Below are positions 6,837 to 53,054 of a stretch of 64,000 bases of DNA, in pieces (position 1 is the first letter of the stretch; every line of letters begins with the position of its first letter). The notes below the pieces were generated by a model, which saw nothing but the letters and a program-made list of their open reading frames with translations, was not told the origin of the DNA and did not search any database. Source of the stretch: a phage. The position numbers and the translations under genes are program-made. The stretch is taken from assembly GCA_014686905.1 (NCBI GenBank), contig GCA_014686905.1_4093.1; one strand, written 5' to 3'.

Positions 6837-7991
6837 TTATGCGTTGTAACCAACTATTACGACTGAGCAGTCAAGCGGTTCTACTACTTTAAGAATTACA
6901 TTATCATCTTCATCCACTTGTATTTCACTATGAACTACATGATTGTCTGAAGAATATAATTGAACTTGTGGTAGTGCTTTACCATGTTCAGTTACTGGAA
7001 CTGAGATAGAGTACATAGAGTCTTCACCGAGAACCCACTCACTTAAAGTATATTCTTTATGGAAAGGAGTAGTATGCAGTGTTTTTCCGATTATACTCAA
7101 AGAAACAGGTAAATTATCAGTTTGATACACAGTAATATTACCTTCTGCGTCTACAGAAAGATCTACACCAACTTGATATAAGTCACCACTGTATGCTTGA
7201 AGTGCTAAGTACTGTCCACGATCATGAACATCAAATGGAACAACCGCAGAAAATACACCTTCCGAAACAGGTTCAAATTGGGATAGAAGAACTGATGTAA
7301 CAAAATCAATATCCTCACCACTTTCAAGAACATCAAATTCCACCACTTTAGTGTTATAATATGGAGAAGTGAGCGTAGCAGTACCTTTCCCTGATTGTGT
7401 GATAACATCAACTGGAATTGTAAATGCATCATTAACAAATTGGGTAGTAAAGTATTCTGTCCCGTCTGGTAATACGATTGTTATTACCATACCGTTAGTA
7501 TCAATTTCTGAACCAGTGTTGAATAATTTACCACTAATTGAGTCATTACCAACAAATACTGGTGAAATGAGAATATTATCTATATCACGATCTATAATAC
7601 CACATTCAGGTGTATACATATGATACAAGGTTTGTGAACTACCTAAAATTGTTTTATGTAGCATAAATTTATATACAAATCCAGTATCAGTTTCTTGTGG
7701 CTCTTCAGAATATCCACGAACAAAGAAACAATTTTTATTAATTTCACTTAATAGTTGGTCATTAGTTTTATTGTAATTTAATAGATAACCTTTATTATCT
7801 TTAGTTGTTATTTGTACTTTACGATATATTATATTAGTTCTTGGATCAATTAAATCATATAATCTATGGCTTCTTTGGCGATAGATTCTAATATTTTTTA
7901 GTCTAGTTCCATCGTTGAGGATTGCACCATCAACAACATAACCACATTCACCAAACTTATAGTGTCCAGCCGCAGCAATTGACCTTGACAT
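6837..7991 (-). CDS. hypothetical protein (384 aa), possibly virion/structural
   Basis: Long - strand ORF; own promoter TATAAT plus GGAGGG immediately upstream on - strand (7992-8025). Confidence 0.65.
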   Translation of the reverse strand: MSRSIAAAGHYKFGECGYVVDGAILNDGTRLKNIRIYRQRSHRLYDLIDPRTNIIYRKVQITTKDNKGYLLNYNKTNDQLLSEINKNCFFVRGYSEEPQETDTGFVYKFMLHKTILGSSQTLYHMYTPECGIIDRDIDNILISPVFVGNDSISGKLFNTGSEIDTNGMVITIVLPDGTEYFTTQFVNDAFTIPVDVITQSGKGTATLTSPYYNTKVVEFDVLESGEDIDFVTSVLLSQFEPVSEGVFSAVVPFDVHDRGQYLALQAYSGDLYQVGVDLSVDAEGNITVYQTDNLPVSLSIIGKTLHTTPFHKEYTLSEWVLGEDSMYSISVPVTEHGKALPQVQLYSSDNHVVHSEIQVDEDDNVILKVVEPLDCSVVIVGYNA

Positions 7992-8107
7992 TTATCCCTC
8001 CATTGGTATAATTATTATAACGTATTTATTATGCATATCCAAAAAATGAGCTTGACTGGTGTATGATTTGGTGTTATCATGTAGTGAATGAATAATGAGG
8101 TGTTTTT

Positions 8108-8692
8108 ATGAATGTTATTGATAATAGATTAGTACTGAAAAATGGAAAAATGACTGTTAAGTTATATAAAGATGAAGCTGATTCTTTTATGGCAAAAGCG
8201 ATTGAAAAATCAGAACGATATAAACTTTTGGCTCCAGCCAGTAAATCGCCATATGGTTTTAATCATGCACATAGTCATTTTGTTGGTATGGTATGTGAGC
8301 ACGCATCTTTAGTACTTTTTAATGAAATTGAAAACAATACTGGTATTAAACTTAATATCGATCCAGCATTCCAAAATGAAGCACGTGACGGTGAATGTGA
8401 TATTAAGGTAAACAACCTTCGTATTGAAGTAAAAGGTATCAAGTATAAATCATGGACTGACTTTGGACCATGTGTTAGTACTCGACAGTTAAAAAATATC
8501 CAGAAAAAAGCTGACGTAATACTATGGGTATTGTATAATGAGAAAAAACAAGAGTTCACGTTTGAGGGATTCAACTATGTAAAAGATATTAGTTCTATCC
8601 CAGTTATCCTCACTGGTGTACCAGGGCGACCAATGATTGAAAATCACCCAGTACTCGGTATTATGAAACCACTACAGGAGTTACCATTGTGA
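8108..8692 (+). CDS. hypothetical protein (194 aa)
   Basis: ORF; TTGACT-N17-TATCAT promoter-like upstream. Confidence 0.6.
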   Translation: MNVIDNRLVLKNGKMTVKLYKDEADSFMAKAIEKSERYKLLAPASKSPYGFNHAHSHFVGMVCEHASLVLFNEIENNTGIKLNIDPAFQNEARDGECDIKVNNLRIEVKGIKYKSWTDFGPCVSTRQLKNIQKKADVILWVLYNEKKQEFTFEGFNYVKDISSIPVILTGVPGRPMIENHPVLGIMKPLQELPL

Positions 8693-8916
8693 TTACTGCA
8701 ACTGTATATCAAGATATCAATGAAGAATTTCATTCTAAAATTGCGTTCTTATCATTTCCTGTACTCCCAGCAGTTGGGTCAACGTTGAATCTTACCATTT
8801 GTGGTTTTGAGAAATATTATAAAGTACTAGATATTGAGTACTGTGCTGATGTATATTCATGTAATAGTGAAATTGCAATTCCAGTATCAATCGATATTAT
8901 TGTAAAAGAGGTTTGA
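8689..8916 (+). CDS. hypothetical protein (75 aa)
   Basis: ORF, overlapping coupling with neighbours. Confidence 0.5.
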   Translation: MITATVYQDINEEFHSKIAFLSFPVLPAVGSTLNLTICGFEKYYKVLDIEYCADVYSCNSEIAIPVSIDIIVKEV

Positions 8917-38294: not shown

Positions 38295-38957
38295 ATGATG
38301 AAAACAAAATTAGGTTTGTTTTATAAAAATTATTTCGTTAAACAGCGTAAATTTATAAAAAAATATTTCTCTGGTGAGAAGTCTAGTCCTATAATTTTTA
38401 AAAGACCAAGTTATAATACTTACTTAGCTGGTGCTAAACAGTCTAAGAAATTTATTACTCTTTTAAATAAAAACAAAATTAAAGCTTCTTATGTTGAAAC
38501 GAGAAGAAACTCATCAATAACTCCTGGTGATTTTATTGAGTACGGATGTTTCAATATTAAGTACAATGATAATACATACTTTATGGATATTGATTGTAAT
38601 ACATCCAATCTTTTTAACATTGTAGTAAATCCATTAAAACAATATAATGTTTATGGTGATTCTATTATCAAATTAATCAAAAACAAAGATAGCTTTGATT
38701 TTGAAATAAATGTTTTAGATGATAATTTTGACGAAGTACCAGTAAACCCTGAAATCTGTGATATTTTAAACAGTTTAAAAGGTAGTACCTACAATATATC
38801 ATCTGATTTAATGTTTCAGTACTCATTAATCCATAAAGATATTGAAAAGTATATTGAATGCTCCAAAATTTTGAATTATCTTTACGATGAATTTAAAAAG
38901 AGTTCTAAAATAACTGCATACACTTTGTACAATATTCCTAAAATGGTGAATCTTTGA
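38295..38957 (+). CDS. hypothetical protein (220 aa)
   Basis: ORF, SD AAGGAG; 3' end converges on the RCC1 array. Confidence 0.55.
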   Translation: MMKTKLGLFYKNYFVKQRKFIKKYFSGEKSSPIIFKRPSYNTYLAGAKQSKKFITLLNKNKIKASYVETRRNSSITPGDFIEYGCFNIKYNDNTYFMDIDCNTSNLFNIVVNPLKQYNVYGDSIIKLIKNKDSFDFEINVLDDNFDEVPVNPEICDILNSLKGSTYNISSDLMFQYSLIHKDIEKYIECSKILNYLYDEFKKSSKITAYTLYNIPKMVNL

Positions 38958-40090
38958 CAAATACAGTACTGGCAACTCCACCGTCTGTAATATATTGTCC
39001 AGTACTGTAAATTTGTATACCATCGGTTAAGTAAGTTCTGTATAAAGTTGCTGTAACATATACGTTATTCATATTCATCTCTATTGGTAGTACACATTTG
39101 GTATAGGCCGACACATCTGTTTGTGTACCTATACCCAATTGACCTGCGTTATCGCCTGTGTTATAACCAGTTGCGTAAACACCTAATGAAGTTATAATAT
39201 GATTAGAAAAATATGAATAACCCACACTGCTTCTTATTATATCACCTGGTGCTTGTGTTGTTTGTCTTAACGAAATATATGTTTGTGATGTAGAACCATT
39301 TGCTAACTGACCAAAGTACTGTCCACCACCATGATATGCAAATAATTTATTAGTACTATTATTACTTGCTATAGCAAAAGCGAAGTAACTTGAGTTTGTT
39401 GTATAATCTTTCACCGTATAGGTATTAGTTATTTGAGAACATAACGTGTACTTTGAATATAACGTCATGTCGGTTGTACCTACGCCTGATATTGCACCAG
39501 TATAATACAATCTCCCATCGGTTCCAATAAATCCTTGCATAAGAAAATTTGCCAGTATTTTGGATGGTGTTACTCCAGTAGGTACTGTTCCTTGTACAAA
39601 TGATGAAAGTGAATCGGTACTTCTACCATTTCCCAGTTGTCCATAACTACCATAACCAGTATTCCATATCGTGTTGTCTGTACATAATACGCTTAATGCA
39701 CCTGCACTAACTGCAATTTGTTTTATTGTTTTTCCTAGGGCTGTTATTCTATCAAACACTATCTTTGCAGAAGCCCACGTAGTAGACTTATCAGTTGATA
39801 AACCCAATGATGCACCATTCCCAGCGTACCACATCGTATTATCTTTCTTTTTTATTAAAGTTGACTCATACCCGCACCCATATATCTTCTACGTTTGTAT
39901 TGCATAAAACCCATTGGGTCTGTGTTATAATATTACCTATACCCATTTGCCCAAACTCTTGAGAGCCTCTACTGTATAGTGTCCCGTCTGACATAAGGGC
40001 AAAAACTGTCGTATCAGATGAAGATATTTTGGTAACAGTAGGGGGTAGGTTCTTTTTTGATGATGTGATAATTCTTCCAAAGGGTAGCAT
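38938..40090 (-). pseudogene. RCC1-like repeat protein, paralog 1, interrupted by frameshift near 39870-39890
   Basis: N-part starts MLPFGRII and stops at 39866; RCC1-like body continues in another frame (track ORF 38938..39834); indel in a C-run. Confidence 0.6.
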
Positions 40091-40162: not shown

Positions 40163-41332
40163 CTAAGCAGAAGGCATATCCTTCATTTTAATAAATGAAA
40201 ATTGTGTACCAGTATTTGTGGTTTGATCAGTAAAATATGAATTACTACCAGCCCAGTACAATTCATTATTAACTATACAATATATAACAGAACTCGAACT
40301 CTGTGAATACACACGACTTATATTTGATGGTTCTACTCCAGTACTGAACTGAACCGAACCCAACTGTGAACTTGGTATCACATCAGTTGGTCTACCTAAA
40401 CCATTAACACCAGCCCCACCACCACATGTATATACCCCAGTACTATCAGTTGATATATTAACATAACCATTTCCGGCATTTTCAAATAGTATTTCACTGG
40501 GAACAACACCAAATCCAGTAAGATCTATTTTCCTGAATGTAGTGTAAACAGTAGAACCACCAACACCTCTTCCACCATAATCATTAGAACCAGCCATATA
40601 GATACTATATCCAGAACTTCCTAAACATAATAACTGTACGTTGTCATATAATATTTGCATAGATATAACGTTATCAGGAATACTCAATACCGTAAAAGTA
40701 GTTAAAGAAGAACTTCCAATATTACTACCAACCGATGTTCCACATCTGTAGTACTTACCGCCTTTTATATAATGGAACGATGAACCGCCTAACTTATGTG
40801 CTCCTATTGTACTTACCCCAGTATCTATAAGAATGGGAGATACAACTTTGTTATTAACACCTAACTCAGATCTACTGTTCATACCGAACCCATATAAACG
40901 ACCATCTAACATCAATATTAGTGTACTACCGGAAGTACCCGCTGACGTAAATTCTATATTCTTTATTTGCGACACGTCAATACCTACAAATAATGAAGTT
41001 ACTTCAGTCCAGTTAACATATGAACCACTAGCCCCAAAATATCCACCCATGTATAGACCTGCACAATATAATTTATTATCAACAGTCTTTATTAATGTAC
41101 CGGATACACACGCCCAAAAATCATCAACTTCATAGGGTACATGTACCCAACCACCTAATACATCACTAGCATCCCCTGTACCTAATTTATAGTTCGAACC
41201 AGAACCACGCATGTACATATTCCCTGTACTATAAAGTAATCCGACATGTAATTGACTACCATCCAATTTCTTTATTTCAGGAAGAGTTGGTTTAATATTT
41301 CCGTACTTTAACATTCTTCCAAAAGGTAACAT
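40163..41332 (-). CDS. RCC1-like repeat (beta-propeller) protein, paralog 2
   Basis: MLPFGRMLKYGNI leader; G-x-N-x-x-GxLG repeats (GFGMNSRSELGVNN); SD GGAGAA. Confidence 0.75.
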   Translation of the reverse strand: MLPFGRMLKYGNIKPTLPEIKKLDGSQLHVGLLYSTGNMYMRGSGSNYKLGTGDASDVLGGWVHVPYEVDDFWACVSGTLIKTVDNKLYCAGLYMGGYFGASGSYVNWTEVTSLFVGIDVSQIKNIEFTSAGTSGSTLILMLDGRLYGFGMNSRSELGVNNKVVSPILIDTGVSTIGAHKLGGSSFHYIKGGKYYRCGTSVGSNIGSSSLTTFTVLSIPDNVISMQILYDNVQLLCLGSSGYSIYMAGSNDYGGRGVGGSTVYTTFRKIDLTGFGVVPSEILFENAGNGYVNISTDSTGVYTCGGGAGVNGLGRPTDVIPSSQLGSVQFSTGVEPSNISRVYSQSSSSVIYCIVNNELYWAGSNSYFTDQTTNTGTQFSFIKMKDMPSA

Positions 41333-41342
41333 AATTTTCTCC

Positions 41343-42522
41343 TTAAATTGGTGGCAATTGGTATTCAGTTAAAGTCCATGTACCAACAACTGTCCCTACT
41401 GGAGACATACCAGTGTAGTATAATTTGCCATTCACATATGCAAATAATGCATTGTCATTCGCAGCAACCAACGATGTTGACGGATCATAAACTACAGAAT
41501 TTGGAAATTGTGCTTGGACGAAAATTGAAGCATTATTAGATGAATTGTTACCAAGCTGTCCATAATTATTATACCCTGTTCCAAAAATACGACTTCCATT
41601 TCTATATAATAATCCCCTAGGATTTTGTGAATATGTTTGTATAAATTCAAAATCGGAAACATTAGTTAATTGTAAATAAGTACTTTGTGGCGTTAAAGAT
41701 ATCTTATTAGTATTAGATAGAACACCATTTCCTAATTGTCCGTGAATTTTGTGACCCTACACCATATAGCGGATAAGTATTATCTACATTAAGAACTATA
41801 CCCAACATATTGTTATATGAAATTATATCAACGGGGTACTGGCCTGTAGGAAAACTATACTTTGTCCAACTCGTCAAAGTATCAGTAGCAGAACCAGTTA
41901 ACAATGTACCAGTACTAGTTTTACCACATCTCCATGCTGAATTATCATTTTTAATTATCCAAGTTGGACTATTGAAAAATGAACTAACCTTTTTAACATT
42001 AATATTAACCTGTGTAAATGATGTAAGTGTAGATGAACTACTACCCAACTCATAGGTTGAATTATCACCTATTGCGTAAAGAACACTATCATTTGTTAGT
42101 AAAAACATATTACGAACATTTGGATATATCTCCTTGATATTATCCACATTAAAACCTGAAAAATAAGACGTACAATCAACAAATGTAGTACTTTGAACTG
42201 CACTAGATGTACCAGTCCAAAGGTTCCAACCTGCATAATAAAATTTATTATCATTGGTCTGAACTAAGCTATATGAAGCATTCCTTGTGCACCAAAAATT
42301 TTTCACATTTTGCATTAAGCGAACCCATTTGGTCTGTGTCGTTGTATTTCCAAGACCGAATATACCAGCATTGTTACCGCCAATACCCCACAAATCACCG
42401 TTCTTATACAGAATCATCAATGTGTTGTTGGTAAAAGCCGATGGTGCTTGCATTTTAATTACACTAGATTCATATATAGGTGCAATATTCCCGTACTTTA
42501 ACATTCTTCCAAAAGGTAACAT
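41343..42522 (-). pseudogene. RCC1-like repeat protein, paralog 3, frameshifted near 41740-41760
   Basis: N-part (track 41713..42600, true start MLPFGRML at 42522) ends ...RTIRKWCSI; body continues in shifted frame (HGQLGNG..., GTGYNNYGQLGNN) to stop at 41343. Confidence 0.6.
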
Positions 42523-42603
42523 AATTCCTCCTTTATTCATTATACTATATTTAATACAAATAAGAAAGCCAGCACTCTGTACTGGCTTTTTGATATACAT
42601 ACT

Positions 42604-43791
42604 TCATATACCCAATTTAATTGGCTCATATTGAAATAGTGTAGGATTGGAGTCAGGGTAGTTCACCACTTCTGTTCCTGGATATGCACCATACCCGTTG
42701 AATGCACCTGAACCATATACTATACCATCGGTGCTAATTAATGCAGAATAATTGTTTCCCATACCAACTGACAGTACTGTCATTGTTGATGTACCTTCTG
42801 GTAGGTTTATAACCTGCTCTCTGAAACTATTACCAGAAGCTGTTGGAACACTAAATCCTAATCTGCCATTGCTACTATTAGTAGAGCCAGTTGCATAACG
42901 TGTACCTGTACTCAAATCCTGAATCCAACACGATGGTCCTTGACCCTCTGGATCAGTCCAGTATCTAAAATTAGCACTATCGTATGTAAAGGGAAGAACT
43001 GCTAATCTGTTAGTTCCCTGGGAACCTGAAGTATACGTCAATCCATACAATGAAGTAAGCAAACCACGAACATATAATCCAGTACTCTTGGTGTATAACA
43101 ATGAGCCTCCTGAACCATCTGAATTGATTGAAAGGATATCAGTATCACCTATATTTGTGAATACCTTAATATCAGATGACCCCGATGTTAATCCATAATT
43201 ACCACAGAACCAAGCTGTGTTATCGTTCTTTAACACAACAACTGTTTCATAAGAACAGGTTACCACATCTTTACAGTTAGTATTGATTTGTACAAATTCA
43301 CCAATCTTCCCAGTTAGGGTATTATTACCAAACTGTCCACGGTTATTTGAACCCATAGCATATAATATTCCAGTACTATTCAATGCGTATATTGTACTAG
43401 TTCCTGGTGTTTCACGGCGTGTAATTGCAATCTTTGTAATAGTTCCTAATGTGCTGAAAAATGAACTCACATCAACGAAACTTGTTTGTGAACCTAATCC
43501 AAATTGACTTAAATTCCCCGCCGCCATATATCTTCCATCATTCATTAGACATATAGTATATGCTGGATGACAGTATATCATAGCTACATTTATAAGAACT
43601 AAGCTAGGCACTCCACCAACAATCGAAGTGGTTGGTGTACCAAAACGATACTCATTGTTTGACCCATATGCAAATAACTTACCATCAGTAGTTAAAAATA
43701 AATGCCCTAATCCATAAGTATTAATCTTGCGGATACCAGCGGGTGGTGGTATCTTATTCCCGTACTTTAACATTCTCCCAAAAGGTAACAT
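42604..43791 (-). CDS. RCC1-like repeat protein, paralog 4
   Basis: MLPFGRMLKYGNK leader; AMGSNNRGQFGNN, AYGSNNEYRFG repeats. Confidence 0.75.
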   Translation of the reverse strand: MLPFGRMLKYGNKIPPPAGIRKINTYGLGHLFLTTDGKLFAYGSNNEYRFGTPTTSIVGGVPSLVLINVAMIYCHPAYTICLMNDGRYMAAGNLSQFGLGSQTSFVDVSSFFSTLGTITKIAITRRETPGTSTIYALNSTGILYAMGSNNRGQFGNNTLTGKIGEFVQINTNCKDVVTCSYETVVVLKNDNTAWFCGNYGLTSGSSDIKVFTNIGDTDILSINSDGSGGSLLYTKSTGLYVRGLLTSLYGLTYTSGSQGTNRLAVLPFTYDSANFRYWTDPEGQGPSCWIQDLSTGTRYATGSTNSSNGRLGFSVPTASGNSFREQVINLPEGTSTMTVLSVGMGNNYSALISTDGIVYGSGAFNGYGAYPGTEVVNYPDSNPTLFQYEPIKLGI

Positions 43792-43799
43792 ATTCCCTC

Positions 43800-44975
43800 C
43801 TATTCCGGTAAAATCATTTTCTTCATTTTAACTTGTTGTGTACCTGCACTCTGTTCCTGGAACATAGAACCACTACCACACCAGTAAACCTCATTTGTCC
43901 CCACTAATGCGTATAACACACCGGAACCCCCCTGCTCTGCAAAAGCATTAACATCAAGTGCAGTATCTGAATCCTCAAATAGTACTGGATAGTACGCCGT
44001 TCTAGGTGTCGATGCAGTGATTTCTCTACCAAGAGCAACACCATTACCACATGTATACAATTTACCACCCTGTGTCATCGCAATCATATGAGAATTAATA
44101 CAAGAATTATTCAGTGATGCCGCATCTGGTACAATACCATAAATTGGAGGTGTAGCACTAAATGGACTCATTATTATACTGGTATCTCCATAACCAATAC
44201 CTAACGTATAATCGGTATTCGTCCCAGCACTATACACTCTAATAGTACCATTATATGATGTCAGTACTGAAGTCGCATTTGTAGTACATGCAATCCCTAG
44301 TACGGTTCCTGTGATATCTGTACTTACCGTAAATGTAGATAAAACAGAAGAGCTTGTTCCTAGGTTGTAGCGAGCATTACTCCCACATCTGTAGTACTGA
44401 CCATTTTTCACATAATGTAACGCCGCCGCACGGTCTGTGCCAGCAATTAAAGTAACACCTGTGTCAATCTTAAGTGCAGTTGATTGGATTCCAGAAACGC
44501 CTAATACACCACCACCATTACGACCTATACCATATAAGTCCCCGTTGCTTAACAAAATTAATATAGCACCATTGGAAATTGTAGTCTCAGTATAAGCTAT
44601 GTTTTGTATAGTACTAAGTGCAGGTATTGAGGATAAATTAGATGTAATATTAGTCCATCCAGGTACGCTCGCTGCAACTACACCAACATAACCCAATTGT
44701 CCAGCTAAGTATAATTCACCACTTGTAGTAAGTATAATAGTCGCGTAAGTTAAGCACCAAACATCAGCAACGCTATATTGGCACTTAACCCAACCATTCT
44801 GTACGAATCCAGTACTGTCATTTCCTAACTTATACTCACCACCATTCCCACGTAGATATAAATTTCCATTATCGAATAACATCCCAACGTGACTAATGGA
44901 AGTACTAATTTTCTTCACACCAGCACGTTTGGGTATAGTATTCCCGTACTTTACCATTCTTCCAAAAGGTAACAT
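43800..44975 (-). CDS. RCC1-like repeat protein, paralog 5
   Basis: MLPFGRMVKYGNT leader; YGIGRNGGGVLGVSG repeats. Confidence 0.75.
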   Translation of the reverse strand: MLPFGRMVKYGNTIPKRAGVKKISTSISHVGMLFDNGNLYLRGNGGEYKLGNDSTGFVQNGWVKCQYSVADVWCLTYATIILTTSGELYLAGQLGYVGVVAASVPGWTNITSNLSSIPALSTIQNIAYTETTISNGAILILLSNGDLYGIGRNGGGVLGVSGIQSTALKIDTGVTLIAGTDRAAALHYVKNGQYYRCGSNARYNLGTSSSVLSTFTVSTDITGTVLGIACTTNATSVLTSYNGTIRVYSAGTNTDYTLGIGYGDTSIIMSPFSATPPIYGIVPDAASLNNSCINSHMIAMTQGGKLYTCGNGVALGREITASTPRTAYYPVLFEDSDTALDVNAFAEQGGSGVLYALVGTNEVYWCGSGSMFQEQSAGTQQVKMKKMILPE

Positions 44976-45045
44976 ACTTCCCTCCTTTATTCATTATACT
45001 ATATTTAATCAAAAAGAAAAGCCAGTACTCTGTACTGGCATAATT

Positions 45046-46188
45046 TCAATAAACATCCCAAGGTAATGGTGTCTTCCTAAATCCATACCTGGTTGTGGTT
45101 GCACCATCACCAGCAATGTATCTACCGATGCCACATTGGTATAACTCCGTACTACTACATATAGCACCACCAATAGTACCACTACTCCACTGAATTATAT
45201 TAGAATATGTTATTGGCAAATCACTACATTTAGTATATACACCAACGGTAGCAGCACCACTAATACCACCAAACATACTTCGGTTAGCACCAGTATAATA
45301 TATACCATCTGGACTCATAAATGCAGAGGTGTAAGTTGTACTACAATCCACTGGACTTCTTATAGTATTAAGATCGCCTGGGTATGTTCTAGCAGCATAT
45401 ACGTAAACATTACCATCAGTAGTAATACCATTGCCCAACTGACCACTGTTCTGACCACCACACGTAACTAACGATGCAGAACCAGAAACAATTGCAGTAG
45501 CATTATACGAAGTACCCATTGCAATAGAAGCACCAGACAATAGTTTTGGGGTAACGATAGCTGTTGTATTACCCTGGCCTAATTCACCATTTGTGTTTCG
45601 TCCCCATGCGTATATAGAAGTCGTATCCAATCGACATAGTACTGAACCATAACTAAACGTATATCGCATGTCATTTACAGCAGAAGGCAAATTAACCTTA
45701 GTTGCAACACTAATAACACCACCAGTAACACCACTGTTTGCGTTCATGTTACGACCATATGCATATAAAGAACCATCTGAAGTTTTAATATGCATCATAC
45801 CATCTGTGCAATATAATGCATCGATGCTATCCACCGCAACCGGACCCATACTGGCAGTTATATCGGTCCACCCAAGAGTAGTAGTACTAGAAATTAAGTT
45901 ATTTCCTGCGTAAAGGATTCTATTATTATTAGTAACTACCACTGTATATCTAGCAGTAACTCCAATTAATCGAACATCAGTATATATCTTAGACCACGCA
46001 CCTAGTGAATTGGTATTTGCATCCAAAAAGCCTAACTGCCCATCTGTATTGTATCCAATACCCCATGCATCACCTGCACTGTCCAATAACACTTCATGTG
46101 AAAAGCCAATCTTAAAATCTTTTATTGTAGGAACTACTGGAACTGGTGCAATATTCCCGTACTTAACCATTCTTGCAAAAGGTAACAT
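45046..46188 (-). CDS. RCC1-like repeat protein, paralog 6
   Basis: MLPFARMVKYGNI leader; WGIGYNTDGQLGF, YAWGRNTNGELGQGN, CGGQNSGQLGNG. Confidence 0.8.
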   Translation of the reverse strand: MLPFARMVKYGNIAPVPVVPTIKDFKIGFSHEVLLDSAGDAWGIGYNTDGQLGFLDANTNSLGAWSKIYTDVRLIGVTARYTVVVTNNNRILYAGNNLISSTTTLGWTDITASMGPVAVDSIDALYCTDGMMHIKTSDGSLYAYGRNMNANSGVTGGVISVATKVNLPSAVNDMRYTFSYGSVLCRLDTTSIYAWGRNTNGELGQGNTTAIVTPKLLSGASIAMGTSYNATAIVSGSASLVTCGGQNSGQLGNGITTDGNVYVYAARTYPGDLNTIRSPVDCSTTYTSAFMSPDGIYYTGANRSMFGGISGAATVGVYTKCSDLPITYSNIIQWSSGTIGGAICSSTELYQCGIGRYIAGDGATTTRYGFRKTPLPWDVY

Positions 46189-46194
46189 AATTCC

Positions 46195-46253
46195 CCTCCT
46201 TATTCATTATACTATATTTAATACAAATAAGAAAGCCAGTATCAAGTACTGGC
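46195..46253 (-). promoter_or_regulatory. representative module: upstream terminator hairpin + -35-less promoter + SD
   Basis: On - strand: GCCAGTACTTGATACTGGC hairpin, T-rich, TTAAATATAGTATAATGAATAAGGAGG, then ATG; repeated before most paralogs. Confidence 0.5.
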
Positions 46254-46260
46254 CTATATT

Positions 46261-46929
46261 TTAGACTGAATTGTTAGGATAATATCTCCCACGTCCCCAT
46301 ATTATTCGCACAGCACCACCACTACCAGCACCACCATTATATGAACCATCGTATCTACCGCCAATACCATTAGCACCTTGAACAATGATACCAGTACCAC
46401 CACCCGTACCAATGAACGAGGTATTATAGAATGCACCACCACCACCGCCGCCGCCAGCACCATTTTCACCAGTGATTGCATCTCCGTTACCACCTTTACC
46501 AGTGTAGCCACCAGCACCACCACCAATGACTGCACCACCACTTACACCAGCGTTGCCCCCATTACCACCACCATCATTAATAGCGTTAGCAGCTTTCCCA
46601 CCTAGTCCACCAACCCTATATTCACCAGTGAAGCTAACACATAGTTTTTCAGTTCCACGATATAAACCGTTTTCAACTGCTGTAGTAGTGTTGGGATGTG
46701 TAAGAGAAACACTTAAGTACTCACCACTAGTAACCGGAATATTATTACGCCACGATAAGCCGCCACCAGCACCACGTTGACCACCCGGCGAAATAACACA
46801 TACTGATATTTCGGTAACGCCAGCAGGAACTGTAAATTGTGTTGTTCCTATTGTCGTGATTAATTGTTCACCATCTGGCTTATATTCAATTTTATTCCCG
46901 TACTTTACCATTCTTCCAAAAGGTAACAT
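46261..46929 (-). CDS. Gly-rich protein sharing the MLPFGRM leader (paralog 7, divergent body)
   Basis: MLPFGRMVKYGNK leader, then Gly-rich low-complexity body (GGNGGNAGVSGGAVIGGGAGG...). Confidence 0.7.
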   Translation of the reverse strand: MLPFGRMVKYGNKIEYKPDGEQLITTIGTTQFTVPAGVTEISVCVISPGGQRGAGGGLSWRNNIPVTSGEYLSVSLTHPNTTTAVENGLYRGTEKLCVSFTGEYRVGGLGGKAANAINDGGGNGGNAGVSGGAVIGGGAGGYTGKGGNGDAITGENGAGGGGGGGAFYNTSFIGTGGGTGIIVQGANGIGGRYDGSYNGGAGSGGAVRIIWGRGRYYPNNSV

Positions 46930-47000
46930 ACTTCCTCCTTTATTCATTATACTATATTTAATACAAATAAGAAAGCCAGTACTTTGTACTGGCGAAATTA

Positions 47001-48191
47001 TTACAATTGTCTAGGTGTATCCAGAACATATCTATTTGTACTAGGTCCACCATCATCATACGTTCCGGTTGAATATATATTTTTCATATCAGCAGTTAGA
47101 AAAGTACGATACGAACCGCGATATATTTTTATTTTATCATACATAGAATATGATATTTCTGCTGGCATTGGACATATAGTAAATCTACCAATAGTAACAT
47201 TAGAACCAACACCTAATGTACCAGCATAACCACTCGCATTTAAACCAGTTGCATATACACCTGTACTCGTAACTAGTATACTAGATTGTGCTGCATATCC
47301 AGTATGGATTGAATAATAAGTTCCTGATGGTAATGTAGTACTATTATTCCCTAATACTGCTAGTGCTGTACTATTCGTAGTGTTATTACCCCATGCCCCA
47401 TTATTAGCGTTACCACCTACTAGGAACTGACGTGCTCCTGTACTTGGATTCTCTACTAAAGCACTGACAGCACCAATTGAACAACCAGTATATTGTAATG
47501 TTTTTGTATATGTGGTACTTGGCTTATACAAAGTATATTCATTAAATGGTGTCCATGTGGTACTAGTACTTATGCCAGATGTACTACCACCAATATATAA
47601 ATTATTTTGTGTATCAAAAAACATTACACAGTAATTTGTTGACTGTATTTGTGCAATATCTACATCTGGTGTTACCGCTTTAACAAATGAACCATCTGAT
47701 ATTTGATAAGTAGTTCCTGTACCATCTGCGAATTGTCTAGCACTATTCCACCCTGTACTCCATATTGTATTATTATCCATTAAGAAAGTAAACCACGTAG
47801 TACCTGCATACATCTGTTTAATTGAAGTACTTGAACTTTGTGTGTACAAATTTTCAATATATTGGTTATAACTTAAAAATGATGTAGTACTAGTTTCTAA
47901 ACCAATATGACTACCATATCCACAATAAAAATAATTTAAGTCCTTATCTTGAACTAACAAAGTTCCTTGTGTCATCCAGCAATCTTTGACATTTTCTCTA
48001 ATTAATGTCCACGACCTTACTGCATTATTATTTCCTCTACCAAACTTCCCAAAACTATTACTGCCTCGTGCGTATAGTTGACCATCAGTATAAAGTACAA
48101 CAACATCAGTATCAGTTGGTATTATTTTCTTAATTTGTAGTGGTACAGGCACAATATTCCCATAATTCATCATTCTTGCAAAAGGTAACAT
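47001..48191 (-). CDS. RCC1-like repeat protein, paralog 8
   Basis: MLPFARMMNYGNI leader; YARGSNSFGKFGRGNNN. Confidence 0.75.
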   Translation of the reverse strand: MLPFARMMNYGNIVPVPLQIKKIIPTDTDVVVLYTDGQLYARGSNSFGKFGRGNNNAVRSWTLIRENVKDCWMTQGTLLVQDKDLNYFYCGYGSHIGLETSTTSFLSYNQYIENLYTQSSSTSIKQMYAGTTWFTFLMDNNTIWSTGWNSARQFADGTGTTYQISDGSFVKAVTPDVDIAQIQSTNYCVMFFDTQNNLYIGGSTSGISTSTTWTPFNEYTLYKPSTTYTKTLQYTGCSIGAVSALVENPSTGARQFLVGGNANNGAWGNNTTNSTALAVLGNNSTTLPSGTYYSIHTGYAAQSSILVTSTGVYATGLNASGYAGTLGVGSNVTIGRFTICPMPAEISYSMYDKIKIYRGSYRTFLTADMKNIYSTGTYDDGGPSTNRYVLDTPRQL

Positions 48192-48244
48192 AATTCCCTC
48201 CTTTATTCATTATACTATATTTAATACAAATAAGAATGCCAGTA

Positions 48245-49432
48245 TCAAGTACTGGCATTGATTGTTGGAAGTGGGAACTCTTTCATGACAGATGAACTAC
48301 TTGCTGAAATATTATCAGGGGATTTCCCCGCGTAGTATAATTTATTATTAATGTACATATACAACGTTGCATCGTTCCCAGCTACAAGTGATTCACTTTT
48401 CTTAAAATTAACACCATCAGGTAAAATTGCTTCAACAAATGAACCAGAATTAATTGTACTGTTATTTGCCAATTGACCATTGTTATTATAACCAGTACTA
48501 TAAATTTTACCAGAGCTATAATATACCAGGCCACGGGATGAGATGTTTTCAATTCGAATGAATTCACTATCATCTGGAACGGTTTTCGATAACGTTGGCG
48601 TTAATTTATAACCCCCTGCTGTAGTATTATTACCCAACTGACCATCAGCTTGATAGCCCATTGTATACATAGGACATGATTCTGGTGTACCTTTAGTTAT
48701 AATACCAATATAACTCGCACTACAAAAAACGTCTATAGCTTCGGTAACAGGTGTGCCCTTATATTGAACCCAAGGAAATATATATGTGTTTTGAACTCCA
48801 TTTCCCAACGTTCCATGAGATGTTGTCCCAGTACGCCATATTGTATTATCTAGTTTAATAATCCAGTTAGAGGGTGTGATGGATGAACAGAATTTTTTAA
48901 CATTATCGACTAAAAATGTAAATTTATTAAAATATGATGCAGTGTTTAAACCAAACTTTGAATTTTTATTATCACCTAACAAATATAAACTATTATCAGT
49001 ACCTAAAATCAAAGCATAATCAAGACCTACATATATCTCTTTGATTTTTGAAATACCAAATTGTGTAAAATAACTCGTACATTCAGTGAATGTTGTTACA
49101 GTATTTGTTGTATTATTACCTAGCCATTTATCTAAACCACTATAAAAGAATCTATCATCATTTGTTCGTATTAGACAAAACCCATTCCCTGTACTGCACC
49201 AAAAATCTTTAACATTGCTATATATTTTTGTCCATTCAGTAACCTGTGTAGTATTCCCTAACCCAAAAATTCCACCATTCTGAAGACCCATAGCCCACAC
49301 TGATCCATTTACATCCAGCAGCATTGTGCATGTAAATGAATAACCAACTGCTGGGGTGACTAATTTAGTAAAATTGGGAACATATGGAATGACTTTATTC
49401 CCGTACTTAACCATTCTTGTAAAAGGTAACAT
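48245..49432 (-). CDS. RCC1-like repeat protein, paralog 9
   Basis: MLPFTRMVKYGNK leader (track ORF extends upstream through promoter); MGYQADGQLGNN, YSTGYNNNGQLANN. Confidence 0.75.
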   Translation of the reverse strand: MLPFTRMVKYGNKVIPYVPNFTKLVTPAVGYSFTCTMLLDVNGSVWAMGLQNGGIFGLGNTTQVTEWTKIYSNVKDFWCSTGNGFCLIRTNDDRFFYSGLDKWLGNNTTNTVTTFTECTSYFTQFGISKIKEIYVGLDYALILGTDNSLYLLGDNKNSKFGLNTASYFNKFTFLVDNVKKFCSSITPSNWIIKLDNTIWRTGTTSHGTLGNGVQNTYIFPWVQYKGTPVTEAIDVFCSASYIGIITKGTPESCPMYTMGYQADGQLGNNTTAGGYKLTPTLSKTVPDDSEFIRIENISSRGLVYYSSGKIYSTGYNNNGQLANNSTINSGSFVEAILPDGVNFKKSESLVAGNDATLYMYINNKLYYAGKSPDNISASSSSVMKEFPLPTINAST

Positions 49433-49502
49433 AATTCCTCCTTTATTCATTATACTATATTTAATCAAAAAATAAAAACCAGTATCAAGTACTGGCTTTA
49501 AT

Positions 49503-50651
49503 TCATTGTATAAATGACATATCAACTTCGGTATATCTTGTAGTGTACTGCCCAGAACTTCCACCCATTACTAGATTGGAAAAACCAGTATAAAATAACT
49601 TCCCTTCATCTGTGAGAATCAAACTACCGATGTTATTCAGTACTAAACTGTAAGAACTATTAAAATTTTCATAAGACTTGGTATAATAGAACTGATTTGT
49701 AAGATTACCAACACCCAATTGCCCACCAGTGTTAACCCCAGATGCAAATATTGTAGTCCCAAATCTGAGAATATGTGAAGCCATATTACCAACACAACAG
49801 TATATATTCTGTACATCCGAATTCAATAAAGTTGGTGTTGTGTATTGCTTAAGTGTTGTGCCTGTGCCGAATTCATTACCATATGATACTCCATATTGTG
49901 TACCACAAGCGTACAATTTATTATCATCTTTAATAAAAAATGTACTCTGATAACTTACATCGACATCTATAACATTAGTCTGTATTCTAACAACACCAGT
50001 ACTAGCAGTTTGATTGCCTGTCCCTAACTGATAGTAAGTGTTAATACCACAACCCCATAATGTATTATCTTCTTTTAGGTATATGTTACCAACAGCTTTT
50101 TTTACCGATGATATGGCTTCAATCTTAACAAAGGCGTTAAATGAATTTGTATTTGTGCCATTACCAAAAGATGATCTGGTTGATGTGCTGTTTGTTCCGC
50201 AGCAATATAAAGTACCATCAGTTGTTATCAAATTCACTTTAAGATCACTGTAACTACTCATGTATTTTATATCAGAAACATTAATACCACTGGATGTTAT
50301 CCATGAAGTACAATCTGTCCACGTGTTATAATATGCACCTGAACCAGAAAACGCACTCGGACTTCCAGTTATAAACACTTTTCCAGTACCGTCTTCTTCA
50401 TATAATTGACAACCACTACTGTTATTTTCCAAAAGGACTCTTTTAACATTAGTCGCACTAAGAATAAATTTACTCGACGCTACACCAGTTCCAGTACCCT
50501 GACTGACTGCCGCTGATGCATACAAATTTTTCGTGTATGTATCATGAAAATACATAGCACTACCGCCGGAATATATTTTAAAACGTGTACTAGGATCAGG
50601 CGGGTTAGGTGCAATATTTCCGTACTTAATCATTCTTCCAAAAGGTAACAT
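49503..50651 (-). CDS. RCC1-like repeat protein, paralog 10
   Basis: MLPFGRMIKYGNI leader; WGCGINTYYQLGTGNQ, FASGVNTGGQLGVGN. Confidence 0.8.
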   Translation of the reverse strand: MLPFGRMIKYGNIAPNPPDPSTRFKIYSGGSAMYFHDTYTKNLYASAAVSQGTGTGVASSKFILSATNVKRVLLENNSSGCQLYEEDGTGKVFITGSPSAFSGSGAYYNTWTDCTSWITSSGINVSDIKYMSSYSDLKVNLITTDGTLYCCGTNSTSTRSSFGNGTNTNSFNAFVKIEAISSVKKAVGNIYLKEDNTLWGCGINTYYQLGTGNQTASTGVVRIQTNVIDVDVSYQSTFFIKDDNKLYACGTQYGVSYGNEFGTGTTLKQYTTPTLLNSDVQNIYCCVGNMASHILRFGTTIFASGVNTGGQLGVGNLTNQFYYTKSYENFNSSYSLVLNNIGSLILTDEGKLFYTGFSNLVMGGSSGQYTTRYTEVDMSFIQ

Positions 50652-50722
50652 ATTTCCCTCCTTTATTCATTATAGTATATTTAATACAAATAAGAATGCC
50701 AGTATCAAGCACTGGCATTATG

Positions 50723-51832
50723 TTATTTTGGTAAATCAATTTTAGTAAAGACTGCAACATCCTCGATTGCACCTGGAATGGCGTAATACGATCCAGTACT
50801 ATACACATCTCCATTTTTGGTTAATATCGATGTCAAACCATCACTAAAAAGAACATCTCTAATCTCACTAACTTCAACGGGTAATTGTAAATTGGTAGCA
50901 CTATATATAGCACCAGTTTGAGAATTGTTTAATCCCAAACCACGGTTCGCCCCAACACCCTTCTGATATGTACTAGTAATTACCATTTGTGTAGCAGTAT
51001 TTAATGCAGGTGAATTCGTCATAAACAACGGAGAACTATTAGGCAAAGTACTTACAGGAACTGCACGGAATGTAGTCGTACCTGAACTAAGAAAGTTTGG
51101 AGTTTGACCACATACGAAATATGATGTACCATTATAGTAATTTAATGCATTACCACCAATGGCTGCATCGATTACACCAGAACTACGCAATCCCCAAGTG
51201 TTAATTTGTGTTTGGTTCCCCGTACCATGCTGCCCACTACTATTCCATCCAGAACTATATAGCTTATTATCTAATGTAAGATACATACTATCATTCGCAT
51301 TGGTCATTACTTTACGAACGTTCGTAGCACATTGAGTTAATGTATAAATTGATGATGAACCAATACCCAAAGAACCACGATATCCATTATCTCCTGCACC
51401 ATAGAGTACTGAATTAGTGCTAAGTACAAATATTAAACCATTTGTACATACAATATTAGCAATTTCACTTACTGGTATAGCATTGGTAAACCAATTAGTC
51501 CTTTCAACTAATACAGTACTGTAAGAAGTAGTCGTAGAAGATGAGAACCAGTACGTTTGACCTGATGTCCATATAGTATTATCATTTTTAATAATAACAA
51601 GTGTACGATCACCCACGAAAAAATTAGAAACATCTGCACTTACTAATATCCATGAAGATACCGTGTTGGTATTACCATTTCCAGATTCACCACCTTGATT
51701 TCTACCTATGTAATATAAATCATGTGAATCAGTCAATAAGAATTGACCTTGTGTAGAAGCACCAACTTTAATTATATTTTTAGGACCAGGTACAATATTT
51801 CCGTACTTAACCATTCTTCCAAAAGGTAACAT
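50723..51832 (-). CDS. RCC1-like repeat protein, paralog 11
   Basis: MLPFGRMVKYGNI leader; LYSSGWNSSGQHGTGNQ, YGAGDNGYRGSLGIG. Confidence 0.75.
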   Translation of the reverse strand: MLPFGRMVKYGNIVPGPKNIIKVGASTQGQFLLTDSHDLYYIGRNQGGESGNGNTNTVSSWILVSADVSNFFVGDRTLVIIKNDNTIWTSGQTYWFSSSTTTSYSTVLVERTNWFTNAIPVSEIANIVCTNGLIFVLSTNSVLYGAGDNGYRGSLGIGSSSIYTLTQCATNVRKVMTNANDSMYLTLDNKLYSSGWNSSGQHGTGNQTQINTWGLRSSGVIDAAIGGNALNYYNGTSYFVCGQTPNFLSSGTTTFRAVPVSTLPNSSPLFMTNSPALNTATQMVITSTYQKGVGANRGLGLNNSQTGAIYSATNLQLPVEVSEIRDVLFSDGLTSILTKNGDVYSTGSYYAIPGAIEDVAVFTKIDLPK

Positions 51833-51905
51833 AAATCCCTCCTTATTCATTATACTATATTTAATACAAAAAAGAAAAGCCAGCATCAAGTACTGGCATA
51901 TCAAA

Positions 51906-53054
51906 TCACTGCAAAAATGACATATCGACTTCGGTATAATTAAGAACGTTCTGTCCAGCAATACCTCCCATTACTACAATTGAAGCCCCACAATAATATA
52001 ACTTCGAAGTGTCAGTAAGTATAAGTGAACCAGATGGGGTGCGTACCAAATTACACGAAGTATTAAACGAAGTATATGAAGGGGTATAAGAGTACTGATT
52101 AATATTATTACCAACACCTAATTGACCAGACGAGTTGCTTCCAGATGCATAAAGTACTTCATCACCTTTAACTATATGTGACGCCATGTTACCAACACAA
52201 GTATATAAACTATAAACTCCTGAACTCAATAATGTTGGAGTTTTGTATTGTATATCTGTAGATGAAGAAGTACCACCTGTGCCAAATTCGTTCCCGTATT
52301 GTGCACCGAACTGTTTACCACATGCGTACAAATTATTATCTGATTTAATAAAAAATGTACTCTGATAACTTACATCAAAATCTATAACATCCGAAGCAAT
52401 CATCGTCACCCCAGTAATAGAAGTTTGATTACCTGTACCTAACTGATAGTAATAGTTAAAACCACAACCCCATAAAGTATTATCTTCTTTTAGGTATATG
52501 TTACCAACTGCCTTTTTAACCGAAGTTATAGTATCTACCCTTTTGAATGTGTTAAAAGAATTAATGTTTGTACCATCACCAAATGATGATAGGTTAGAGT
52601 TATTGTTAGCTCCACAACAATACAATGTACCATCGTTTGTTATCAAATTTACCTTCATATCATTAAAACTACTCATGTATTTTATATCAGAAACATTAAT
52701 ACCACCTGATGTTATCCACGTAGTACATTCCGTCCACAAAGTTTTTCTATCAGTTACACCAGTGAATGCCTTCGTGTTACCAGTGATAAAAACTTTTCCA
52801 GTACCTTTCTCTTCATACAATTGACAATCACTACTGTTATTTTCCAATAGAACTCGTTTAACATTCTCCGCACTAAGAATAAATTTACTCGACGAAACAC
52901 CTGTTCCAGTACCCCAATTCGTCGCAGAAGATGCATACAACTTATCAGTATAAGTATCATGAAGATACATGGAATCACTGGAATATATTTTAAAACGTCC
53001 ATCATCACCAGGGGCAATATTCCCGTACTTAATCATTCTAACAAAAGGTAACAT
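51906..53054 (-). CDS. RCC1-like repeat protein, paralog 12 (close duplicate of paralog 10)
   Basis: MLPFVRMIKYGNI leader; long blocks near-identical to 49503..50651. Confidence 0.8.
   Translation of the reverse strand: MLPFVRMIKYGNIAPGDDGRFKIYSSDSMYLHDTYTDKLYASSATNWGTGTGVSSSKFILSAENVKRVLLENNSSDCQLYEEKGTGKVFITGNTKAFTGVTDRKTLWTECTTWITSGGINVSDIKYMSSFNDMKVNLITNDGTLYCCGANNNSNLSSFGDGTNINSFNTFKRVDTITSVKKAVGNIYLKEDNTLWGCGFNYYYQLGTGNQTSITGVTMIASDVIDFDVSYQSTFFIKSDNNLYACGKQFGAQYGNEFGTGGTSSSTDIQYKTPTLLSSGVYSLYTCVGNMASHIVKGDEVLYASGSNSSGQLGVGNNINQYSYTPSYTSFNTSCNLVRTPSGSLILTDTSKLYYCGASIVVMGGIAGQNVLNYTEVDMSFLQ

Follow-up and report, generated by a model that had tools for sequence, protein, structure and literature searches.

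Designs in which a constant N-terminus carries a variable body are well known among phage virion proteins. The T4 capsid-targeting sequence (CTS), a stretch of ~10 residues at the N-terminus, is the sole conserved part of the otherwise diverse internal proteins (PMC3012670), and the anchors of fibres and tailspikes combine a constant N-terminal attachment part with an exchangeable C-terminal binding part, several per virion (PMC12692247). Pam3 gp24 likewise docks a TNF-like and glycine-rich head via its N-terminal part (PMC9608196). Here, we describe a 12-residue leader peptide that heads an array of genes in a 64,000-nucleotide stretch of phage DNA (contig GCA_014686905.1_4093.1 of assembly GCA_014686905.1, hereafter the window), which is Asteriusvirus DNA, from a jumbo coliphage of the 121Q/phAPEC6 type. 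We concentrate on the gene at 46261–46929, on the minus strand, which places the leader on a glycine-rich body among neighbours with RCC1-like bodies. The leader seems to be undescribed. Papers covering CBB, phAPEC6, 121Q and JP4, and one comparative review, make no mention of a shared leader (PMC5259590, PMC7247149, PMC12648861, PMC5646251, PMC7824862), and a text search for the leader sequence in phages returned nothing relevant among the papers covered. The glycine-rich gene is labelled hypothetical in most records, the CBB and phAPEC6 papers assign no fold to its product (PMC5259590, PMC7247149), and RCC1, Kelch and glycine-rich proteins go unmentioned in a comparative paper on jumbo phages (PMC7824862).

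The glycine-rich open reading frame (ORF) runs from an ATG at 46929 to a TAA stop at 46261–46263 and encodes 222 residues, beginning with MLPFGRMVKYGN; by coordinate it is the seventh paralog of the array. A longer ORF in the program-made list opens six codons upstream (46947, MNKGGS-). We regard the MLPF start at 46929 as the real one, because the ATG at 46947 falls within a −10-like box and a strong Shine-Dalgarno (SD) sequence (AAAGGAGG, 46934–46941; this and all other array features lie on the minus strand) ends 4 nt before 46929. The leader proper comprises codons 1–12 (46894–46929), and DNA homology with the neighbouring genes stops at its end.

Comparison of this leader with the first 12 residues of the 10 RCC1-like neighbours gave identities of 75–100%, with all 12 residues shared with two of them, and the ten other intact array genes open with M-L-P-F-x-R-M-x-x-Y-G-N. 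Leader identity across the array is 87% at the amino-acid level and 91% at the nucleotide level, whereas the RCC1-like bodies are mostly 21–39% identical in pairwise comparison, with one pair at 68%. The glycine-rich body, taken from residue 19 on, had no significant match among the paralog bodies by BLASTP (best E = 0.02), and a Pfam scan found no RCC1 in the glycine-rich protein, while finding it in all 7 neighbours tested. What the gene shares with the array family is the 12-residue leader together with a repeated 5′ module of ~103 nt, made up of a hairpin, a promoter-like box, an SD sequence and the leader itself. The 22-nt box TTAAATATAGTATAATGAATAA occurs 9 times in the window, always inside the array, against 0.01 copies expected, and each copy stands behind a GCCAGTAC...GTACTGGC hairpin followed by a T-run. 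Aligned with one another, the nine modules are near-invariant from the hairpin to codon 12–13 and unalignable thereafter. The initial annotation had claimed that the seventh paralog bears the common leader and the same promoter/hairpin module on a body that is not RCC1-like, and had called for the N-termini to be aligned against the bodies; these claims hold, with homology breaking off where the leader ends and, as described next, a different fold predicted for the body.

A Pfam scan of the 222-residue protein returned no family at E ≤ 0.01, and the glycine-rich domain family PF21722 was not matched directly. However, 148 homologues were found at E ≤ 1e-3, many of the distant ones annotated as PF21722, and a 66-sequence alignment contains conserved blocks throughout (FTVPxGVT, GGGLSWRNNIPV, NDGGGNGG, GGAGGY.G.GG and GAVRIIWG). 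AlphaFold2, run on this alignment, predicted a structure with a mean predicted local distance difference test score (pLDDT) of 89.7 and a predicted template modelling score of 0.87, confident over residues 20–222. The model has the glycine-rich-domain fold. Following the leader, residues 13–19 (KIEYKPD, 46873–46893) form a linker that is not kept among the paralogs, and the first strand starts from residue 20. By model, alignment and the published description of Pam3 gp24 (PMC9608196), ~residues 20–114 (46588–46872) form a TNF-like β-sandwich half, with the family motif QFTVPAGVTEISVCVISPGG...GGGLSWRNNIPV. This is followed by a glycine-rich region with repeated Gly motifs, predicted to form a polyglycine-II-type lattice (~residues 115–205, 46315–46587; model and alignment), and by a conserved C-terminal strand, GAVRIIWGRGRYYPNNSV, with the TAA stop (46261–46314; alignment and model).

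Structural matches in BFVD were to proteins annotated as glycine-rich domain-containing and to tail-fibre proteins, including a 265-residue protein of the Rak2-like Erwinia phage pEa_SNUABM_47. On the model, residues ~20–222 have the fold of phage fibre receptor-binding tips, as in Pam3 gp24, the S16 gp38-type adhesins and the Bxb1 gp33 'brush'. Thus, of the 'Gly-rich low-complexity' body that had been proposed, the richness in glycine stands and the low complexity does not, since the region is a confidently predicted folded domain. Known PF21722-relative glycine-rich domain (GRD) proteins include Pam3 gp24 (7YPX), the Bxb1 tail wing brush gp33 (9D93) and the ALK/LTK GRD (7LIR, 7LRZ), and the solved relatives of the body sit on the virion exterior. 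Pam3 gp24 consists of an N-terminal docking helix, a TNF-like domain and, built of stacked Gly motifs, a glycine-rich domain; a role in host recognition has been proposed for it, and its likeness to both the S16 gp38 adhesin and the ALK GRD has been described (PMC9608196, PMC9942802). While Pam3 gp24 has an α-helical docking shaft, the glycine-rich protein described here has none and bears the 12-residue leader in its place.

Next, we explored the distribution of the leader across jumbo phages. Degenerate DNA patterns were run through IMG/VR, and a hit was counted as real where an ORF of >150 codons stood behind a GGAG-type SD. Real hits read MLPF or MIPF and came from contigs of 348–378 kb, namely 121Q (11), CBB (11), GAP32, Serratia BF, Yersinia fHe-Yen9-04 and, from metagenomes, several contigs that include uncultivated viral genomes of 355–371 kb, with one exception in size, a 109-kb metagenomic contig that has four MIPF genes. 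Pattern matches in the remaining, mostly small contigs were short ORFs lacking an SD, bar one unrelated ORF of 352 codons, which also lacked an SD. At least five unrelated types of body stand behind the leader (consensus M-L/I-P-F-x-x-h-h-x-Y-G/A-N) in several Rak2-like jumbo genera. The bodies behind it form at least nine BLAST clusters and include, by Pfam, RCC1, Kelch, Laminin_G_3 (a concanavalin-like lectin) and the glycine-rich domain, alongside several families without a Pfam assignment. The leader genes of CBB are CBB_144, 247, 536, 537, 548, 549, 550, 551, 552, 553 and 554, of which 548 and 551 have Laminin_G_3 bodies and 550, 552 and 554 have Kelch bodies. CBB_144 (MLPFSPLIVYGNK) is the glycine-rich orthologue, ~32% identical and likewise built of leader plus body, and was found in the virion by mass spectrometry (PMC5259590). 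The N-terminus of GAP32 gp1 is MLPFSRIIQYGN.

A tblastn search with an RCC1 paralog produced alignments from residue 1 in jumbo phages of Escherichia, Salmonella, Klebsiella, Erwinia, Yersinia, Serratia, Cronobacter and Xanthomonas, whereas the RCC1 proteins of Clostridioides, Synechococcus and Listeria phages aligned only from residue 11–39 onwards. A profile built from the first 18 residues of each of the 11 array proteins in the window and searched against 1.84 billion representative proteins gave 26 hits at E ≤ 1e-3, comprising 23 at residue 1, two behind mis-called upstream starts and one that was unrelated; a search with a padded leader-only alignment returned 7 short fragments and was uninformative. 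The leader was not found on glycine-rich homologues outside the Rak2-like clade, which have other N-termini. Many glycine-rich homologues of other phages start M-[LIF]-E-[LMTAIQ]-[LM] (MLELL, MIELLA, MLETL, MFEMM), and other groups start MSGALQAVFQNQRSF, MKRFPGNIIT or MSKRYQGG. Judged from their sequences, these recurrent alternative N-termini may serve for attachment in a lineage-specific way. A search for M[LIF]E[LM][LM] as a second shared tag, made over the first 50 kb of PVP-SE1, found it on gp19 only. Within the clade, the leaders of the glycine-rich orthologues of JP4 (8001–8738) and Turkey3 carry Y10F (MLPFGRMVKFGN and MLPFARMVKFGN). Some leader proteins of metagenomic jumbo contigs reach 667–676 residues (L032 4200 (−), L047 1903 (+) and L024 140 (+)), and the 667-residue L032 protein, judged by eye, has an RCC1-like N-terminal half followed by an apparent Kelch-like C-terminal half, so that one tag can carry two propellers.

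Published virion proteomes connect the leader proteins to the particle. Mass spectrometry of CBB detected 55 of its 554 proteins, and these include 9 of the 11 leader proteins against 46 of the other 543 (Fisher P = 2.4e-8, PMC5259590 Table 4). CBB_144 was among them, with 5 peptides and 34% coverage (PMC5259590). Likewise, 8 of the 11 RCC1-like paralogs of phAPEC6 are listed among its 62 virion proteins (P = 2e-6, PMC7247149 Table 1), GAP32 gp1 is a virion protein (PMC5259590), and three leader RCC1 paralogs appear in the liquid chromatography–tandem mass spectrometry list of JP4; Hua et al. 2017 contains no virion proteome (PMC5646251). These phages carry hair-like head and tail appendages that are unexplained, and a 'fibre-anchoring' density has been reported at the centres of the capsid hexamers (PMC5259590, PMC7247149). 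The phAPEC6 record labels one RCC1 paralog 'S-layer protein' and another 'Ig domain-containing protein', and cellular homologues of the RCC1-like paralogs have secretion-type N-termini and Ig-like domains.

That the N-terminal peptide is an independent module for targeting, docking or processing, as the initial annotation had argued, is thus supported by its clade-wide occurrence on unrelated bodies, the profile hits at N-termini, its enrichment in virions, its absence from glycine-rich homologues outside the clade and, as detailed below, its conservation as a peptide and its position outside the predicted folds. We consider it probable, though well short of certain, that the leader is an autonomous N-terminal tag for virion incorporation or docking on swappable binding heads, which are probably external. 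In such an arrangement the tag, residues 1–12 with a short linker, would itself bring about incorporation by binding, as the virion assembles, one acceptor site common to all tagged proteins, each of which would enter the particle in this way. The array would amount to a set of interchangeable binding heads, RCC1 propellers and a glycine-rich domain in the window, with Kelch and Laminin_G_3 also available in relatives, and the bodies would bind ligands on the host surface. Each gene would be an independent cassette, highly expressed and equipped with a terminator hairpin, a promoter-like box and a strong SD of its own, and homology between copies of the ~103-nt repeated module would allow cassettes to be gained, lost and exchanged. 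Three features favour external display: the kinds of fold, the solved structures related to the glycine-rich body, and the uncharged, non-basic character of the bodies. A bolder version, which we put forward only tentatively, is plug-and-play display, in which a 12-residue docking peptide would bring at least 10 unrelated, rapidly exchanged lectin- or adhesin-like modules per genome to one surface acceptor, covering the virion with a mosaic of heads. The binding heads are possibly sited on, or at the base of, the 'hairs' of the head and tail.

Such a tag would differ from the fibre anchors described so far. Those are folded and usually trimeric, with tens to >100 residues, whereas the leader has 12 residues, is predicted to be disordered alone (pLDDT 48 in two models) and sits on small single-domain proteins that are not fibres.

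Several observations weigh against the docking-tag reading. Virion association could in principle stem from the bodies and not from the leader, the docking acceptor is hypothetical, and the suggested external location derives from nothing more than analogies of fold and the 'hairy' look of these phages. The globular 22–45 kDa leader proteins cannot themselves form hairs of ~119 nm, and GAP32 has leader proteins, yet there is no report of hairiness. Furthermore, the glycine-rich protein has so far not been detected in any Asteriusvirus virion. It is absent from the 49 virion proteins of JP4, and in the phAPEC6 record (MK817115.1, 7325–8056) the gene is unannotated, with only a 100-residue fragment listed as gp004, so the protein could not be identified in that virion. 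Finally, the window's copy lacks a block that is conserved in the glycine-rich domain family. Compared with its orthologue 121Q gp243 (annotated 'hypothetical', whereas CBB_144 is annotated 'structural protein'), it carries a private in-frame deletion of 69 nt, with the junction within 46315–46325 (at about 46318–46321) between two GTGGTGGTGCTG direct repeats, which removes 23 residues (GGAGKMYGGGGSIWDNFSYTAAG) including the family-conserved YGGG block. Outside the deletion there are 0 mismatches at the aligned nucleotides, and the gene is full-length in all 18 other Asteriusvirus records. Model confidence is lowest around the junction (pLDDT 72 for residues 191–200), and this copy may be a tolerated or a weakened variant. 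The ratio of nonsynonymous to synonymous substitution rates for the glycine-rich gene among four Asteriusviruses was based on too few substitutions to be informative (synonymous rate 0.005–0.06).

The main rival is that the leader acts as a T4-type CTS. It would guide the proteins to the prohead core, and they would be packaged in the head alongside the DNA and perhaps ejected, with the bodies serving as injected effectors, internal structural proteins or components of an 'inner body'. The likeness is close in outline. Both the CTS, on IPI, IPII, IPIII and Alt, and the leader are N-termini of ~10–12 residues on otherwise unrelated, strain-variable virion proteins (PMC3012670), and the array is hypervariable between strains, as are the T4 internal protein loci. 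In addition, an inner body and a prohead protease of T4-like type are present in phAPEC6, whose authors proposed the RCC1 paralogs as candidates for the inner body (PMC7247149), and virion mass spectrometry cannot separate inside from outside. However, the leader and the CTS are unrelated in sequence, and in T4 the CTS has a prohead-protease site at its end and is removed, leaving the cargo inside the head. The leader has no conserved Glu, L/I-x-E site or other cleavage motif at its end. Positions 7–9 read MVK, MIK, MLK or MMN in the window and vary over the clade, and members of the family have K, N, E, Q, V, T, Y, D, H or A at position 9. The bodies also speak against an internal cargo. They are lectin- or adhesin-like, with the fibre-tip glycine-rich domain, Laminin_G_3 and the Kelch and RCC1 propellers among them, the solved relatives of the glycine-rich one being located on the exterior of virions. 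As rigid β-structures of 22–74 kDa that are not basic, they would be awkward to pass through a tail tube. We therefore regard internal packaging as unlikely.

A related label can be set aside. The name 'regulator of chromosome condensation / DNA condensation protein' given to the paralogs derives from the name of the RCC1 repeat alone. The array bodies are near-neutral or acidic and charge-poor, with ~6% Lys plus Arg, unlike DNA-condensing proteins, and on this composition we rejected the DNA condensation reading.

A further alternative is that the leader has no function of its own, its first 36 nt being merely part of a promoter, terminator and SD unit that is copied or homogenised among cassettes by recombination or kept for mRNA or translation initiation. 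Within this phage the leader module is indeed conserved as DNA, the same codon being used in 90% of identical-residue pairs among the array leaders while the bodies are 21–39% identical, and no gap interrupts the conserved block between the hairpin and codon 12. However, the invariant leader residues use several codons (CCA/CCG/CCT, TTT/TTC, TAT/TAC and GGA/GGG/GGT) in CBB and other genera, where the DNA upstream of the leader genes is unlike from gene to gene. The peptide is kept from Escherichia to Xanthomonas phages. Even in the window, the leader genes at 43791 and 41332 have no module of their own and start 9 nt and ~380 nt, respectively, past the preceding gene, and both still bear the leader. 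The variation in synonymous codons and upstream DNA, together with these two genes, indicates that the constraint acts on the peptide and not on a DNA repeat, and a leader without function is very improbable.

The structure models address the relationship of the leader to the bodies. In the glycine-rich model, residues 1–10 have a mean pLDDT of 48 and residues 11–20 a mean of 69. In that of an RCC1 neighbour (45046–46188; overall pLDDT 91.1), the leader also scores 48, with a tentative helix at residues 4–11, and the propeller begins from residue 22. With the bodies at pLDDT >90, both models leave residues 1–~19, and hence the leader, outside the fold. The leader would be flexible on its own. 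Possibly, it is a short amphipathic helix (F4–G11) with Pro3 and Gly11-Asn12 as caps and hydrophobic residues at positions 4, 7, 8 and 10, folding on binding. The idea that the leader is instead a structural element of the bodies, either a 'velcro' strand that closes the propeller or a segment for folding or chaperone recognition, draws on the preponderance of β-propellers among leader proteins, on the many propellers that close their ring with an N-terminal strand and on the known need of fibre-tip glycine-rich domains for chaperones (PMC9608196), yet it has little chance of being correct, as the leader is found on non-propeller folds too (the glycine-rich domain, Laminin_G_3 and others), is left unpacked by AlphaFold2 on the glycine-rich protein and on a propeller complete from residue 22, and is not needed for folding by RCC1 and glycine-rich homologues outside the clade. 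We rejected the velcro strand on the structure models.

The surroundings of the gene illustrate the organisation of the array, which spans 40163–53054 and has 11 intact leader genes (10 RCC1-like and the glycine-rich gene), nine of them with their own hairpin and promoter-like module. Upstream of the glycine-rich gene, the hairpin GCCAGTACAAAGTACTGGC with its T-run (46975–46993) resembles a terminator at the end of gene 47001–48191 and is the first element of the repeated module. It is followed by the TTAAATATAGTATAATGAATAA box at 46940–46961, in which TTGTAT and TATAAT stand 9 nt apart; lacking the sigma-70 layout, the box is probably a phage-specific promoter, judging by its sequence. Downstream, a second hairpin and T-run (46233–46255) form a terminator-like end to the glycine-rich gene and the start of the next module, that of gene 45046–46188. 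The repeated box and the hairpin with T-run, as sequence motifs, flank the gene on both sides. Given the two genes that lack a module, the array is a mix of monocistronic cassettes and short operons. A twelfth paralog (38938–40090) has a decayed leader, MLPFGRIITSSKK (ATG at 40090, MLPFGRIITSS), and a stop after 74 codons, its RCC1 body resuming in the +1 frame. It is probably a dead, frameshifted copy, and the 12 leader paralogs first reported are therefore 11 intact genes and one degenerate one. A hairpin and a weaker promoter-like box still stand upstream of this copy.

All megablast matches to the array region came from the 121Q/PBECO4/phAPEC6 group (Asteriusvirus) of jumbo coliphages and Salmonella phages. 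They were patchy, with any single record covering at most 50% of the region, which indicates that the array is a variable part of an otherwise conserved genome. Closest relatives differ between adjacent cassettes, the glycine-rich gene being 100% identical to 121Q while gene 45046–46188 is 85% identical to the 121Q copy and 99% to phage UB. The breakpoints of this mosaicism (45046–46929) are compatible with recombination at the repeated modules. Elsewhere, the window contains a tRNA-Thr (TGT) at 1434–1507 on the plus strand and, at 6837–7991, a lone minus-strand gene among small plus-strand genes, which encodes 384 residues, matches PHROG 10468 ('virion structural protein') and has no leader.

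Our analysis has consequences for how these genes are read. The glycine-rich gene offers a caution, in that a glycine-rich stretch resembling low complexity turned out to be predicted as a well-defined adhesin-type fold. Arrays whose members were earlier taken for 'DNA condensation proteins' or inner-body candidates can be re-read as one functional class of virion-associated proteins. The docking-tag reading offers an explanation, open to test, for some of the surface decoration that is so far unexplained in these phages, and predicts an acceptor protein. If it is true, the leader would be a ready-made and very short handle for displaying foreign proteins on jumbo phages, and mosaic heads would broaden or tune the binding of these phages to hosts and environment.

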